A stretch of 64,000 nt of DNA, taken from assembly GCA_965228735.1 (NCBI GenBank), contig OZ245838.1, forward strand, positions 4,256,001 to 4,320,000. The letters are read 5' to 3'. Positions within the stretch are counted from its first letter, which is position 1, and each line of letters begins with the position of its first letter. This stretch comes from Planctomycetota bacterium (GTDB lineage: Bacteria; Planctomycetota; UBA1135; UBA2386). Shown here piece after piece: positions 5,672 to 12,708 of the stretch. The position numbers and the translations under genes are program-made. The notes beneath the pieces were generated by a model that was given only the letters and a program-made list of their open reading frames with translations, did not search any database and had not been told where the DNA came from.

Positions 5672-7120
5672 ATGGACCCGACCCGCGACGACGATCCGCT
5701 GCCCCCGCGGCTGCGCGCGTGGCAGGTCGTCGCGGTCTTCGGCGTCGCGCTCGTCGTGCTGCTGCTCGGGCCGCAGCGCGGGGTGCACGGCGTCGACGGG
5801 CACACGTTCGCGGTCTGGGTCGAAGAAGGTGCGACCGCGGTCTACTCGCGGCACATCGGTTACCTGTGGCTCTGCGGGCTCGTCTACGCGGGGCTCGAAC
5901 CGGCCGGCGCGACGGGGCACGACGCGCTGCTCGTCGCCTCCGCGCTCGGCAGCGCCGGCGGGCTCGCGTTGCTGACCCTGGCCTTCGCCCGTCTCTTCCC
6001 GGGGCGCATTCACCCGGTGCTCGGCGCGCTCGCCGTCGTCGCGACGCCGAGCTGGCTCTACTTCGCGACGATCGGTGAGATCCCCGGCGTGCTCGCGGCC
6101 GGCGTCGGGCTGTCGTGGTGGCTGTTCGCGCGCTGGCTCGATCGACCGACCGCGATCGCGGCGGCGGCGCTCGGCGTCTGCACGGCGCTGACGGCGACGC
6201 TGCACGCGCTCGGACACCTCCTGCCGATCGCGCTGCCGGCCGTGGCGTTCGTCCTGCGACGGCTGCCAGAACGCGGACGAGTCGGTCAGGCCGTCGCGAT
6301 GCTCGTCGCCCACTTCGGGCTCGCGACCCTGCTGTCCGTGCTGCTCGCGCGCGGCGCCAGCGGCCAGGCCGACGACATCGCGTTCGCGTTCGAAGAACGG
6401 TGGGCGACGTTCGCGCCTTTGACCACGCCCGCGGTGTTCTGGCGCGAGTGGATCGTGCCGTACCTGCCGTGGTCGATCGGCGCGTTCGTGGCCCTCGCGC
6501 ACCCGGCGTCCCGCAAGGTCGCGCTCGCGGCCCTCGTGGCGTTCCTGCTCTACCTGCCGGCCAACGTCGTGTTCCTCGGCTTCTACGAGCTGCACGAACG
6601 CGGCGCCTACTTCGCGCCCGTCGCACCGCTGCTCTTCATCGCCGTCGCGCATCGCACCACGGCGCGCCGGTTTCTCGTCATCGCCGCGGTCGGCCTCGTC
6701 GTCACAGTGATCAGCGTCGCGCCGGGCTGGCGCAACCCCGTGCCGCCGGAGTTCGGCACCGGCGTCGCGGAGCTCAACGCCGAGCGGCCGCTCGCGCTCG
6801 TCGTCGCCAACGAGGACGAGCTCGCGGGCGCGCGCACCGCGACCCGCGGCCTCGTGCTCATGGACCTCGCCGCGGTCGTGAGCGCCTACGAGCAGCAGCC
6901 GAAGCCGAAGCCCGGGTTCGCCGGCTGGTTCGACCTCTGGTTCGGACAGCTGCGGCGGCAGGGTCTCGACGTCGTGTTCAGCGCGGCGACGGGCGCGATG
7001 CTGAGCACGACGGAGTATCCGGGCATGGCCGCGTTCTGGAACGAGCACCTGCCACAGAACTACGCGCTCGCGGAGGTCGAACGCCTCGGGTTCCGCGGCA
7101 CGTTCGTGCGGCCGAAGTAG
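5672..7120 (+). CDS. Polytopic membrane protein (possibly GT-C glycosyltransferase-like)
   Basis: About 10 hydrophobic segments followed by a soluble C-terminal domain; GC3 bias. The function is a guess. Confidence 0.6.
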   Translation: MDPTRDDDPLPPRLRAWQVVAVFGVALVVLLLGPQRGVHGVDGHTFAVWVEEGATAVYSRHIGYLWLCGLVYAGLEPAGATGHDALLVASALGSAGGLALLTLAFARLFPGRIHPVLGALAVVATPSWLYFATIGEIPGVLAAGVGLSWWLFARWLDRPTAIAAAALGVCTALTATLHALGHLLPIALPAVAFVLRRLPERGRVGQAVAMLVAHFGLATLLSVLLARGASGQADDIAFAFEERWATFAPLTTPAVFWREWIVPYLPWSIGAFVALAHPASRKVALAALVAFLLYLPANVVFLGFYELHERGAYFAPVAPLLFIAVAHRTTARRFLVIAAVGLVVTVISVAPGWRNPVPPEFGTGVAELNAERPLALVVANEDELAGARTATRGLVLMDLAAVVSAYEQQPKPKPGFAGWFDLWFGQLRRQGLDVVFSAATGAMLSTTEYPGMAAFWNEHLPQNYALAEVERLGFRGTFVRPK

Positions 7121-7125
7121 CGGCC

Positions 7126-7176
7126 GTTCGAACCCGGGGTTCGAACCCGGCGGTTTGAACCAGGTTCGGTACGGGT
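7126..7176. repeat. Intergenic palindromic repeat, related to the element at 21192-21276
   Basis: GTTCGAACCCGG occurs twice (7126, 7139); 7146-7176 matches 21247-21277 at 28/31 nt. Confidence 0.75.
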
Positions 7177-7178
7177 GC

Positions 7179-9728
7179 CTACTCGTTGCGGCCGGTCTCG
7201 TTGAGGGACCAGGTCAAGAACTCGATCCAGTCGGCCTTCCAGGCGTTCGGGCCGCCGCTGAGCTCGTGCTCACCGACGACCTCGTTGTCGTTGCTCGGGT
7301 CCACGACGACGAAGTAGGGCATCGTGAGCGTGCCGCCCGCGATTTCGTCCCGCGCCTTCAGGTTGGCGTTGAACTGCGCCTCGCTGAGGTGGTTCTGCGA
7401 GTCGCAGTGCAGTCGGGCTTCGACGAAGTGCTCTTTCATGATCTCGGCGACCGCCGGATCGAGGAAGGTGTTGCCTTCCATGATGCGACACGAGCCTCAA
7501 TTGAAGCCGGTGAAGTTGTAGAGCAGCAGCTTGTCCTCGGTCTTGGCGACCTGCAGCGCGCCGGCCGGGTCGTCCTTGACGATCGTGTGGCCCTTGGACT
7601 GCTTGGCCTCGCCGTCACCGCCGCCGCCGCCGCCCTCGAACTGCGGACCGATGTAGGCGCCGTGATAGGCCGGGATGAACGACGTCGTGATGAGGTCGAG
7701 GCGCTGGCCGTTCGAGCCCATCAGCAGGTAGACCGCGAGCAGGCTCACGAGGATGCCGGTGCCCTGACGCGCGCCGCTGACGCCCTCGTATGGCTGGCCC
7801 TTCTTCGGCAGGAAGCCGAACAGGAACGCGACCCAGATGAACAGGATCGTCGCGGTGAGCGCGAGGTAGAGCTCACGGTTGAGGACCTGCCAGCCGAGCG
7901 CGATGTCGACCATCGAGATGAACTTGAGCGCCGCGGCGAGCTCGACGAACCCGAGCGAGACCTTGAGCGTGTCCATCCACTCGCCCGACTTCGGCATCGC
8001 CTTGACCTTGGTCGGCAGCAATGCGAGTGCGACGAACGGGATCGCCATCGTCAGGCCGAAGATCGCCATGCCGAAGCCGACCTGCAGCGAACCCTGGTGC
8101 GCCACGCTGGCGAGCAACGTGCCGACGATCGGAGCCGTGCAGGTGAACGACGTGATCACGAGCACCGCACCCATGAAGAACACGCCGACGAGGCCGCCCG
8201 TCCGGGACGCCTTCCCGCCGACGTTCTGCAGGAACTGCGGCGGCTGCAGGTTGATCCAGCCGAACAACGCGAAGGCGAACACGATGAAGAACACGCCGAT
8301 CACCGCGTTCGTCGCCCAGTGATTCACGATCGGCCCGATGACCTGCGCCGCCAGCACTCCCACCACGACGAAGATCGTGATGATCCCCGCGCCGTAGGTC
8401 AGCGCCAGCGGCAGGACCTTCCCGCCACGCTTCTCGGCCTGCTTGGTGAAGAACGAGAACGTGATCGGGATCATCGGATACGTGCACGGCATCGCGAGCG
8501 CGAACAGCCCGCCGCCGATGCACGCGAGGATCAGCGCCCAGATCGAGTCGAACGCGCCCTTCTTCTTGGCCGGTCCATTGCTCTCGCCCTCGCCGCCCTC
8601 GCCGCCCCCGCCCGCTGGGACGACTCCTTCCGACTCGCCACCGCCGCCCTGGGCAACAGCCGCACCGGAGTACTCGCTCCGCACATCACCCGCCTCGACG
8701 ACGAGCTTGGCGGCGAACGGCGCTTCGGCCTCGGGCTTGCAGCCGTTCTCGTCGCAGATCTGGTAGTTGAGCATGCCGGCGAGCGCGACCTCGCCCGTGG
8801 CCATGCCGTCCGGCACCTTCACCGCCTGCTTGACCTCGAAGAACTCGGGCAGCGGATACTGCACGAGCCCGTGCGCCTCCTTGCGCTCACCGGGCGGGAC
8901 GTCCGCCTCGCCGACCGGTTCGAGTCCGGCGAACTGCACCTTGTCGTGGAACAACGCGACCGGCACGTTGACCTCTTCGTTGCTGCCGTAGGCGTGCCAG
9001 CCGAACGGCGTCGTCACCTCGAGGATGAGTTGGATCGTCTCGCCGGGACGCGCGGTCTCCGGATCGAAACGCGCGAGCACCGTCGCGTCCTCGGAGTCGA
9101 GGCCGAGGCCGGGCTTGAAGCCGGGGTCGAAACCGGCGCCGGGGTCCTGGCCCATCGGCTCCTGACCACCCGCGGCTTCACCGCCGGATCCCGACTTCGC
9201 CGCCGCCGCGGCAACTGTCAGCGTCGCGCTGAACGGCTTCTCCTCCGGCGGCCGACAGCCCGACTCGTTGCAGATCTGATAGTCGAACATGCCGGCGACC
9301 TTGACGTCGCCCGCGGCCATCCCGGCCGGCACCTTGACGGTCTGCTTGACCTCGAAGAACTCGGGCAGCGGATACTGCGTGAGCCCGAACGCCTCCTTCT
9401 TCTTGCCCGGCGGGATCTGCGCGTCGCCGACCGCTTCGAGGCCGGCGAACTGGATCTTGTCGTGCGACAGCGCGACCGGGATGTTGACCGTCTCGCTGCT
9501 GCCGTAGGCATGCCAGCCGAGCGCCGTCGTCACCTCGAGCACGAGCTCGGCGGTATCGCCGGGGCTCGCGGTCGCCGGCTCGAAGCGCGCGGACAGGGTC
9601 AGCAGTTCGGGATCGAGCCCCAAACCGGGTTTGACGCCCTGCGCGGCAGCGGGCGCCGCCAGTCCCAGGGCGAGCCCCAGGCCGGCGGCGGCCTGGAGCG
9701 AAGTCAGCCAGCGAACGGTCGTACTCAT
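7179..9728 (-). CDS. dsbD: DsbD-like thiol:disulfide interchange protein, probable selenoprotein (TGA at 7497-7499 read as Sec, 849 aa)
   Basis: Signal peptide, two DsbD-alpha-like domains (YQICNESGC, YQICDENGC), TM domain (AMPCTYPMIPIT, SFTCTAP, PKSGEWM). Then NFTGFN-TGA-GSCRIME continues in frame into the 7179..7481 thioredoxin-fold ORF (MPYFVVVDP). Confidence 0.85.
7452..7490 (-). promoter_or_regulatory. Candidate bacterial SECIS hairpin
   Basis: Directly after the TGA: TGTCG-C-ATC-AT-GGAAGG[CAACA]CCTTCC-TC-GAT-C-CGGCG; the apical loop starts 23 nt after the TGA. Confidence 0.6.
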
Positions 9729-9852
9729 CGGGGCGGGGATGATACGAGCCGCCCCGGTGAGGTTGCGCAGAAGTTCTGCCCGGCCATGGGATCGAGCGCT
9801 GGATCGGGCGCGCGCCCGTCCGCAGGAGCGGACGAACGCGCGACATGGCGGC

Positions 9853-12708
9853 CTACTTGCCCTTGCTGCCGGCGCCCCCGCGCAGGTGGATTGCCGTGAT
9901 CGCCGCCTTCGCCGCGGCCGCGATCTCCTTGTCGGTCTCGCCGGCCCAATCGATGAGGAACGGCAGCGCCTCGGCCTGGCCGAGCACGCCGAGCGACTTG
10001 ATCGCGAGCAGGCGCTGGGCCCTCTCCTGATCGGGCTTGCTCTGCATCAACAACTTCTCCGTCGCCGAAGCGGGCGAGGCATCGACGCCCTTGAGCACGC
10101 GGTCCCAGTGCGCCTGCTGTTCGTGGTAGAAGCGGATGCGCGTGAGCGCCTCGGACGCGGCCTCGCGGACCGTGGCTTCGGGATCTCGCAGCAGCGCGAT
10201 CAGCTGCGGTACCGCGTCGCGGGTCACGACGCGACCAGCGTACTGCACGGCAGCGAATCGCACCCCACGAACCTCGTCATCGAGCAGCGGCAGCACGAGG
10301 TCCGCGACCTCGATGCCGAGCTCCTCGGCAGCGCCGGCGCCGGCAACCCGCACGGCCGGCTCCACGTGCGATGTCAACAACGCGAGGCGCTCACGGTCGC
10401 GGACCCAGTCCGCCAACCTCAGAACCTTGCCGATCCTGGCCGCCTCGCTCCCGGCGCTCTTGCGCAGCAACTCCACGAGCGGCGCCTCGAACCTGGCTCC
10501 GTCATCGCGCTGGAGAACCTCCAGCAGCCGGAGACGACGCGCTGCATCGTCACTGCGCAGCACGGCAACGACCCACGCTCGCAGCGCGGCGGCACGCTCC
10601 GGACGCTCTTCCCCTCGCCACGCCCGCGCCGCGACCTTGAGCCACTTCTCCGCAATGCGATCGCGGTGATTCGCGAAGCGCGTCAGCGCACCTTCGACCA
10701 CGGCGACGAAGTAGACGTCGTTGATCGCGTCGATCGAGAATCGCCCGGGATCCATCGCGTCCTCGAACGCGGGTTCGGTCACGGCTCCGATCACGCCCAC
10801 GACCTCGTCCCGCCCGAACGGATGCGTCGGGATGCCCTCGTGCGGCCGGTAGACCAGGTACTGGAACGGCGTCAGTCGCGGCGCGTCCTCACCCTCGGCG
10901 AACGGGTGGCGCGCGGTCGAACCGAGCGCGACGCCCTTGCCGACCCATTCGAGCGCCTCCGCGTCACCCATCGTCAGGAGCGCGAGCAACGGCTGCGCGT
11001 TGCCGCCCCGGCCCTGCCGATCGCGGTAGGTGGCACTGACGGCGAAGGCGTGCAGCGCCCGCTTCATCTCCTCGGTCCGCACCCAGCGCGCGAGCCGCAC
11101 GGTCGACCCGATGAGCTTGTCGTTGTGCTTGCTCTCGTACTCCTGCCGCAACCACTCCGCGGCGCCAGGGTGGCGGGTGTTGGCCATCGGCCGCGCGAAG
11201 TTCGTCATGTCCTCGTAGCTGCCGCGCACGGCCTCCGCGCGCTCGCGCAAACCGGGGAACGCGGCCTCGGGCAGGTGGTCGATCCGGCTCATGGCGTAGA
11301 GCACGGCGTCGATGCGCGACTTCGACCCGCGGATGTGCGGGATGAGGTCGAGCACGTTCTCGGCCGTGATCCGCCCGGCGAGCAACCCGCCGATCTCGTG
11401 CATCCCGCCGTCGAACCAGCGCAGCAGCGGCGCGACGGCGCCGTCGCCGTGCTTCTCGATGACGTTCCACATCAGCTGCATCATCCAGTTGCGGCTCGCG
11501 CCGTTCGGCTCGTAGCGGGCCATGCAACGGTCGATGGCCGGCACCAGCGCGCGCGCCTGAGCCTCGGTGAGTTCATACGGCTGGCTCCGCGTCGACGGCG
11601 CCGCCGTCCCGCGCATGTCGGGCAGCGCCGCGAGCAGCAGGTGGATGCCACGCACGGATCGTTGCGACGTGGTGCTGCAGAGGAAGCGATGCGCCTGCGC
11701 GCCGACCTCCGGATCGGTGCTCGCGAGGATCGCCTCGACGCGATCGTGCAGGCGATCGAGCAGTTCGGGGGCGACCTCGCGGGGCGACATCGCCCACCGG
11801 AAGATCGATCCGAGCGCCGCCGGCGGCCCGGCGAGCGCGCAGCGCACGACCTGGTCGGCCGGCAGCAGGTTCGCGAGCGTGCCATTGCCGCCGCCGCGCG
11901 GTTCCGTGAACAGCAGCGCGGACGTCACGCTGCCGTCCGGGGCGGGATCGGCGAGGAAGCGACACGCGACCTCGAGCATGCGCTCGCTGCGCGCCTGGAA
12001 CGCGGTCCTGGCGACGTAGACGCGGAACGCGACGTTCTCCGCCTTGGTGCACGACGCGAGGTAGGACGCCGCGGCGTCGCCGCCCGTGCGCCAGAGGAAA
12101 CCCGCGAGACCGGACACGAAGTTGGCGAGCAGTAGGCCGTCGCCGCCGCGACTCATCGTCACCTTCGGCATCGCGTCCTGCAGCGCAGCGATGACCTCGG
12201 GCACGGCCGCCTCACCGATCCAGAGCAGCTGGTTGCTGAGTTGCGAGCTCTGGATGCCGTGCAGCGGTCCGCCCCAGCCGCCAATCGTTTTGTTCTCGCG
12301 GATCTTCTCCATGATCTCGCGCGCCTGCCCGCGCAGCTCCCAGGTCCGCTCCGAGTCCTGCCCGGGCCCGGTCTCGCCATCGATGACGAGCACGCTCGAT
12401 TTGCTCGCCTCCTCGAGGAACGCGTAGGCCTCGTCCTTCCGACCGAGCTTCTTCAGCAGGTTGCCGAGCCGCAGGTTGGCCCACGCGCGCGCCGCGACGG
12501 AAAGGTCACTGCCGGCGAGCGCCTCGCGATAGAGCCGCTCGGCCTTCGCGAGGTCGCCTTCCTGCTCCTCGGCCGCGATCATCGCGGCGAGCTCCTCGCG
12601 GGGGTGCGGCTTCTTGGGCTTGTCCTGGGCCGCGAGCTGGGCGGCGAGGCCGAGAACAGCCACGGCGAGCAACGTCAGGGCGGGATGGGTGGGTCTCAGG
12701 TTTCTCAT
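9853..12708 (-). CDS. Secreted TPR/HEAT-repeat protein
   Basis: Signal peptide MRNLRPTHPALTLLAVAVLGLAAQLAAQ, N-terminal TPR-like helices, C-terminal HEAT repeats (LLDDEVRGVRFAAV, LLRDPEATVREAASEAL). Confidence 0.8.
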   Translation of the reverse strand: MRNLRPTHPALTLLAVAVLGLAAQLAAQDKPKKPHPREELAAMIAAEEQEGDLAKAERLYREALAGSDLSVAARAWANLRLGNLLKKLGRKDEAYAFLEEASKSSVLVIDGETGPGQDSERTWELRGQAREIMEKIRENKTIGGWGGPLHGIQSSQLSNQLLWIGEAAVPEVIAALQDAMPKVTMSRGGDGLLLANFVSGLAGFLWRTGGDAAASYLASCTKAENVAFRVYVARTAFQARSERMLEVACRFLADPAPDGSVTSALLFTEPRGGGNGTLANLLPADQVVRCALAGPPAALGSIFRWAMSPREVAPELLDRLHDRVEAILASTDPEVGAQAHRFLCSTTSQRSVRGIHLLLAALPDMRGTAAPSTRSQPYELTEAQARALVPAIDRCMARYEPNGASRNWMMQLMWNVIEKHGDGAVAPLLRWFDGGMHEIGGLLAGRITAENVLDLIPHIRGSKSRIDAVLYAMSRIDHLPEAAFPGLRERAEAVRGSYEDMTNFARPMANTRHPGAAEWLRQEYESKHNDKLIGSTVRLARWVRTEEMKRALHAFAVSATYRDRQGRGGNAQPLLALLTMGDAEALEWVGKGVALGSTARHPFAEGEDAPRLTPFQYLVYRPHEGIPTHPFGRDEVVGVIGAVTEPAFEDAMDPGRFSIDAINDVYFVAVVEGALTRFANHRDRIAEKWLKVAARAWRGEERPERAAALRAWVVAVLRSDDAARRLRLLEVLQRDDGARFEAPLVELLRKSAGSEAARIGKVLRLADWVRDRERLALLTSHVEPAVRVAGAGAAEELGIEVADLVLPLLDDEVRGVRFAAVQYAGRVVTRDAVPQLIALLRDPEATVREAASEALTRIRFYHEQQAHWDRVLKGVDASPASATEKLLMQSKPDQERAQRLLAIKSLGVLGQAEALPFLIDWAGETDKEIAAAAKAAITAIHLRGGAGSKGK

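Follow-up and report, generated by a model that had tools for sequence, protein, structure and literature searches.

The window analyzed here, a stretch of 64,000 nucleotides from a Planctomycetota genome, carries on its minus strand a 743-aa open reading frame (7497..9728) that terminates with L-Y-N-F-T-G-F-N and a TGA codon. Past this codon, the same frame continues with G-S-C-R-I-M-E and stays open for 105 codons, up to a TAG at 7179 on the same strand. The TGA (7497..7499) occupies the position of the first Cys of a thioredoxin motif, U-G-S-C, and reading it as selenocysteine (Sec) gives a single gene (7179..9728, minus strand) with an 849-aa product containing U744 and C747. A sequence-only reading had noticed this arrangement and proposed a DsbD selenoprotein hidden as two ORFs; the frame structure it described is borne out by the sequence. 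At the N terminus, a hydrophobic stretch ending in A-A-A (about residues 1 to 29; 9642..9728, minus strand) looks by eye like a probable signal peptide. No promoter- or terminator-like site was found at 7000-10000, and Rfam gave no match in the same interval at E values up to 1. At 7121-7178, short palindromic repeats separate two convergent genes, and the contig of one sequencing run (X8) has one additional 14-base unit there.

In Pfam searches, the 849-aa protein matched DsbD_N in two places and also DsbD_TM, and its thioredoxin-like matches run across the TGA. Alpha domain 1 (residues 42 to 172; 9213..9605, minus strand; PF11412) has the pair C153-x4-C158, and alpha domain 2 (residues 214 to 344; 8697..9089, minus strand; PF11412) has C325-x4-C330, with C325 and C330 each conserved at 90% or more in a 97-sequence alignment. 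The two domains are 68% identical to each other, and the first resembles the N-domain of ScsB (6C29) in structure comparison (Z 10.3). Alpha motifs reach three in homologues, so that the alpha copy number is variable. The membrane (beta) domain (residues 393 to 672; 7713..8552, minus strand) matches PF02683, the DsbD/CcdA membrane domain, with an E value of 2.6e-24; its C415 and C530 are invariant in the 97 sequences and likely correspond to Cys163 and Cys285 of the E. coli protein. A hydropathy scan found seven segments in this domain and the structural model gives an additional helix at 652-672, eight being expected for a periplasmic gamma domain. That thioredoxin-fold gamma domain (residues 715 to 849; 7182..7586, minus strand) contains U744-G-S-C747, and its phmmer match to 3F9U (E value of 4.5e-6) spans the TGA.

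The AlphaFold2 model of the whole product, built from the 97-sequence alignment (mean pLDDT 84), shows two beta-sandwich domains, which are the alpha domains, followed by a membrane domain made of helices and by a thioredoxin fold in which residue 744 begins the active-site helix. The structure of the gamma domain scores Z 15.3 to 3F9U (tied with 2JU5 and 2LST) and 12.0 to 1VRS chain D; Foldseek with the whole model returned chiefly generic Ig-fold pairs. All six DsbD redox positions are found in the 849-aa protein, which has three features of the three-domain class of the DsbD superfamily: an alpha domain of Ig-like fold carrying paired Cys residues, a membrane domain with two Cys residues, and a thioredoxin C terminus with C/U-x-x-C.

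The codon is conserved well beyond this genome. Protein searches over 60 relatives gave matches in 57 of 61 genomes, its own included, and a related-locus search in the genome contigs gave one locus. Among the best 29 loci of other genomes, the same column holds TGA in 26 and TGC in 3, the downstream domain is intact without decay, and none of the 30 loci, our own included, has lost the Cys at +3 (C747). TGA and TGC sharing one column, with the second Cys always kept, are not a matter of chance. These columns, together with the Pfam and 3F9U alignments, confirm that the TGA falls on the first Cys of the DsbD C-terminal motif, as had been claimed. An exact DNA pattern for F-T-G-x-x-U-x-x-C-R-x-x-E found the TGA version in 92 of 401 genomes of the phylum, representing at least 22 families, and the Cys version in 39; a reversed-pattern control found none. 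Inspection of 30 TGA loci showed a DsbD membrane domain upstream in frame in 28, one locus that was too short, and one chance match. In metagenomes, at least 120 pattern matches were obtained, 114 of which had a BLASTP match to the 849-aa protein, with two more sharing the motif and an open frame and four due to chance; this pattern requires TGA, so the matches carry no Sec/Cys ratio. The downstream frame is open for about 85 to 130 codons in nearly all of the metagenome loci.

The prediction that annotation would split the gene holds in the databases, where 112 of the 120 nearest proteins end exactly before the TGA codon and the remaining 8 are full length with Cys. The names of the database matches place the group in Planctomycetota. 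On an unrooted tree of 141 proteins, computed without the Sec position and the hairpin-coded residues, there are at least 11 changes between Sec and Cys, with gain and loss not separable. One metagenome locus with TGA (L073) has its nearest named relatives in Armatimonadota/Abditibacteriota; among its homologues, compared as proteins with DNA for L073 alone, 9 of 120 end at the same motif and 110 of 120 have Cys. This locus suggests that Sec-DsbD extends beyond Planctomycetota.

Consistent with these patterns, the machinery for Sec insertion, which the sequence-only reading had proposed to look for, is all found in the genome (7.19 Mb, 93% complete). selA (454 bits), selB (337 bits), and selD (367 bits) all score above curated cut-offs, selD has an in-frame TGA of its own, and there is one tRNA-SeC(tca). 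In the 61-genome set, 60 genomes gave a selA match and 59 a selB match. Of the 92 genomes with the TGA pattern, 80 were tested for selA and 79 have it, the exception being a 67% complete genome; most of the other 12 are covered by the 61-genome search. selA is also found in 28 of 36 genomes with the Cys form and hence is no predictor of Sec here. In one family (f13), the forms are Cys, and selA is missing from five of five near-complete genomes.

Taken together, the domains, the relatives, and the sel genes agree with the proposed 849-aa DsbD carrying Sec at 744, and none of the conditions that were to overturn the proposal was seen. We put at roughly 93% the probability that the two annotated pieces are one full-length DsbD gene whose UGA 744 is likely decoded as selenocysteine, in a protein that would relay thioredoxin electrons across the inner membrane. 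This very likely Sec-containing DsbD is widespread in Planctomycetota and mis-annotated. The Sec residue itself we infer from sequence patterns.

It is very improbable, in our estimation, that the TGA is a true stop, ending an alpha-alpha-beta protein whose gamma domain would come from a restart at an ATG (7481) or from a separate Cys paralogue. TGA is the usual stop here, ending 1789 of 2760 high-scoring frames, an ATG does lie five codons past the TGA at issue, and the genome encodes a separate, probably secreted protein (3955507-3955872, plus strand) ending in a Cys copy (C-A-S-C) of the DsbD gamma domain that is 39% identical. However, the restart would drop both active-site residues and would have no signal peptide, and the break would fall within the thioredoxin fold of the model. 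The retention of C747 in 30 of 30 loci also argues against a stop, as does the range of codons found at the site. TAA or TAG versions of the pattern occur in 0 of 151 genomes, 31 of which have TGA matches (one by chance), and in 48 distinct genome loci the stop alternates with Cys codons only (40 TGA, 8 Cys).

We regard it as no likelier that the UGA is read as another residue, Cys or Trp, owing to an altered genetic code or to a suppressor tRNA. Cys would give back an ordinary CxxC, and insertion of Cys at UGA under selenium shortage has been reported in other systems, whereas Trp would destroy the motif. The chief role of TGA as a stop codon implies that the code is not changed; UGA terminates most genes here, as in the NqrD frame before NqrE, and the sole TCA anticodon among 67 tRNAs belongs to the 99-nt tRNA-SeC. 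The third alternative, a decaying gene in which the TGA is a nonsense mutation or a sequencing error, found no support and is already refuted by conservation, given the occurrence of this codon in 22 or more families of the phylum, the open downstream frames in metagenomes, the status of this gene as the sole PF02683 match in a 93% complete genome, and contigs from three studies. Those independent contigs (runs X2, X3, and X8, none of them the run flagged as a possible source) span 7000-8855 and have an identical codon, which answers the doubt raised earlier about 7497-7499 and means that it is not an assembly error; the X8 contig, from another strain, has six differences elsewhere and none at the TGA. 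A fourth aligned run, X15, has its coverage outside the codon.

A codon-model scan of the genome found about 20 further plausible in-frame TGA genes. When 20 candidates were scanned with NCBIfam, an ArsC-like protein (NF041106), a SelL-like protein (NF040769), and MsrA passed the cut-offs, and one was a false positive; the ArsC-like and SelL-like families are curated and known as selenoproteins. Further candidates (among L244-L262 and at other positions) are Grx-like, Bcp-like, TlpA-like, deiodinase-like, and heavy-metal-binding. L245, L250, L256, L258, and L262 had no NCBIfam match. Candidate L247 was rejected as the ordinary NqrD stop preceding NqrE. By eye, many of the candidates begin like signal peptides.

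Turning to how Sec might be specified, the RNA 3′ of the UGA folds into two hairpins, with a stability of z -1.9 against dinucleotide shuffles and z -2.7 against synonymous shuffles. Hairpin 1 lies at +18 to +34 after the UGA (7463..7479, minus strand), and its loop here is without the G-G or G-U of a typical SECIS; a leading loop G appears only if the closing G-C pair is open. Hairpin 2, at +37 to +57 (7440..7460, minus strand), has a GGUC loop at +45 to +48 and is the best SECIS candidate from RNA folding. The SECIS consensus given in the portion of PMC13188914 available to us places the loop 16 to 37 nt from the UGA, with a G in the first two loop positions, and allows exceptions. At 44 nt, the loop of hairpin 2 lies outside this range, and no hairpin with a G-G or G-U loop was found at +16 to +38, so that the locus departs from the consensus bacterial SECIS model.

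To compare the two forms, we set 170 distinct Sec loci against 33 Cys loci, leaving out 15 loci missed by the motif/length filter and 13 duplicates. Against synonymous shuffles, the downstream RNA has a mean z of -1.23 in the Sec forms and -0.28 in the Cys forms. All five core pairs of hairpin 1 form in 107 of the 170 Sec loci and 4 of the 33 Cys loci; the expectation of 62 for the Sec loci implies that this hairpin is partly forced by the protein sequence. For hairpin 2 (a G-G loop at +45 and a stem of at least four pairs), 90 of the 170 Sec loci are positive compared to 18.4 expected, and 0 of the 33 Cys loci. Each of its four inner pairs forms in 105 to 110 of the 142 in-register Sec loci, more than in any of 2000 column shuffles, which ignore kinship, and compensatory variants include C-G, A-U, G-C, and U-A. 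In slid registers, the pairs form in 13 to 108 and 17 to 99 loci; single slid pairs can score high, but all four do not. With kinship removed, the association of Sec with the hairpin weakens and depends on 7 independent pairs (4.6 in favor, 0.5 against; median p of 0.125). In Sec forms, hairpin 2 is maintained by selection. Its GGUC loop is also the loop of near hairpins in the TlpA-like and deiodinase-like candidates of the genome.

Several other ideas about these hairpins fared less well. A scan for canonical-looking hairpins at +16 to +50 has a high background, as such hairpins are missing in 15 of the 170 Sec loci and present in 13 of the 33 Cys loci. Near and far SECIS loops seemed to exclude each other (both in 37 loci, near only in 41, far only in 77, neither in 15; Fisher p of 6e-7), but the exclusion is unsupported on the tree (independent pairs 4.1 versus 2.6 and 3.7 versus 3.1; median p of 0.73 and 1) and is unproven. 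Hairpin 1, taken as a shared sequence motif, has 38 matches after other TGAs of the genome, none of them a recognizable selenoprotein besides the DsbD gene, and is not a motif that selenoprotein genes share. Separately, the best G-G loop hairpin of the ArsC-like candidate (L246; 839879, minus strand) is distant, at +52, and is a possible second distant SECIS.

How does this protein compare to known systems? It has in common with E. coli DsbD (NF001419/PRK00293; 1VRS) the alpha-beta-gamma order, the Cys pair at each domain position, the thioredoxin-fold gamma domain, and a Glu at +7 from the nucleophile. It differs in that Sec replaces the Cys461 counterpart, there are two alpha domains with Cx4C, and Asn stands for Asp455; its score against the E. 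coli-type subfamily PRK00293 is 98 bits, compared to a cut-off of 330. The original assignment to DsbD stands, while the type is not that of E. coli; with its two alpha domains and FTGxxCxNC type, its nearest structure is 3F9U. This DsbD-like C-terminal domain from Bacteroides fragilis shares the FTGxxCxNCRxME motif and is both the top sequence match and a tied top structure match, although it is a Cys form with 21% identity. Another selenoprotein with a DsbD-type membrane domain is TsoB (NF045694), reportedly a rhodanese/DsbD fusion-like protein described by Haft and Tolstoy in 2025. The TsoB model matches residues 395 to 607 here, the membrane part only, at 116 bits compared to a cut-off of 805, and the rhodanese domain is absent from our protein. 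TsoB has the motif UxxxxU with two Sec residues and is filed as a rhodanese-like form in the accessible part of a 2026 review.

The most frequent kind of bacterial selenoprotein has Sec in place of Cys in a UxxC motif of a thioredoxin fold. One such family is the "thiol:disulfide interchange protein" selenoprotein (WP_011366075.1, PF13098; "Trx-like 2," cd02953), whose representative is soluble, about 190 aa, without a membrane or alpha domain, unlike the 849-aa membrane protein here. The "Trx-like 2" class of a 2008 ocean survey corresponds to cd02953 and has 22 reads (PMC2398784, Dataset S1, consulted in part). In that portion of the data set, the FTGxxU motif is found in 0 of the 22 reads, and one read, JCVI_READ_100177, resembles a Sec-containing DsbD gamma domain of the E. 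coli type; it is a single fragment that is not described as DsbD in that material. The ScsB class (Cho et al. 2012, PMC3322552), going by sections of that paper, is also a three-domain membrane electron transporter, serving TlpA and peroxiredoxin clients, but its alpha domain is longer and cannot be aligned with DsbD alpha, whereas the alpha domains here match PF11412 DsbD_N.

We found no description of a Sec-DsbD family in the literature searched, although gamma-domain matches may sit under generic names in BSepDB. In the accessible part of the 2026 review, the list of 119 prokaryotic selenoprotein families has no Sec-DsbD, and DsbD is named once, for TsoB. Term searches did not find the family in the text and supplements of PMC12013277 or the text of PMC5029168, nor was it found in the text and part of the supplement of PMC13326102 or in passages and Table S9 of PMC4807772. 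No NCBIfam selenoprotein model fits the 849-aa protein. The novelty lies in the host protein and how widely it occurs, together with the distant SECIS candidate.

Homology to E. coli DsbD (as treated in parts of PMC3322552 and PMC2631958) suggests that electrons would pass from thioredoxin to C415/C530, on to U744/C747, then to the alpha domains and clients. Thioredoxin would reduce C415-C530 of the membrane domain; this pair would reduce the selenenylsulfide that U744 and C747 form in the gamma domain, on the periplasmic side; and the U744 selenolate would attack the disulfide of either alpha domain. The alpha domains would in turn reduce clients in the periplasm. Among these are probably the exported TlpA-like, peroxiredoxin-like, and MsrA proteins encoded in this genome, and several of those proteins are candidate selenoproteins too. 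In E. coli, the alpha domain is reduced by Cys461 acting as the nucleophile, and excerpts of PMC2631958 describe a pKa of 10.5, raised by Asp455 and Glu468, that keeps this Cys unreactive and so protects it from oxidation. U744 is the counterpart of Cys461, and the Glu468 counterpart is kept; the Asn found for Asp455 occurs in 136 of the 170 Sec forms and 13 of the 33 Cys forms, as raw counts uncorrected for kinship. The pKa of a selenol is near 5, and a selenol at 744 would be a ready nucleophile, giving up the E. coli type of protection.

With respect to decoding, we infer that SelB with Sec-tRNA would bind the GGUC loop of hairpin 2, and hairpin 1 may fold up the intervening RNA so that this loop comes within reach. 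One can envision, as a tentative proposal that we consider somewhat less probable than its contrary, that Planctomycetota run a single trans-membrane reductant hub on selenium. Sec-DsbD would feed a selenoprotein-rich periplasm; Sec would be inserted through a new tandem SECIS, with hairpin 1 as a folded spacer and hairpin 2 at 44 nt binding SelB, which would constrain the protein sequence (P-A-V-A or P-E-V-S); the amount of full-length DsbD would be set by how much selenium is available; and the separate Cys gamma protein would be a back-up.

If the Sec reading is true, it adds a widespread selenoprotein family, with the TGA motif in about one-fifth of sampled Planctomycetota genomes and with public records cut at the UGA for most of the nearest homologues, and it places selenium in a central envelope electron relay. 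A selenol at the Cys461 position would undo the pKa control known from E. coli, and natural Sec/Cys pairs exist for comparison. The bacterial SECIS model would have to be broadened to take in a loop at 44 nt, and such a distance would account for Sec-DsbD being missed by SECIS-based searches.

One further gene of this genome, L263 (5150211-5152226, plus strand), with a TGA at 5150736, encodes a protein of some 650 aa, probably secreted, that carries the motif W-L-U-M-C. It has a C-terminal DsbD-alpha domain (PF11412), a SECIS-like loop at +24, and no NCBIfam match; it is a candidate uncatalogued selenoprotein and a possible DsbD client.

Finally, no conserved operon was seen around the DsbD gene among loci that are short. 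The downstream neighbor recurs in 3 of 202 other loci, an arylsulfotransferase-like neighbor gene in 2, and the upstream HEAT gene in 0. A different neighbor, presumably FeoB from how its sequence reads, lies beside 27 of 203 loci (L111, L042, and L169, for example), all of them Sec forms, and may reflect plain synteny among kin.
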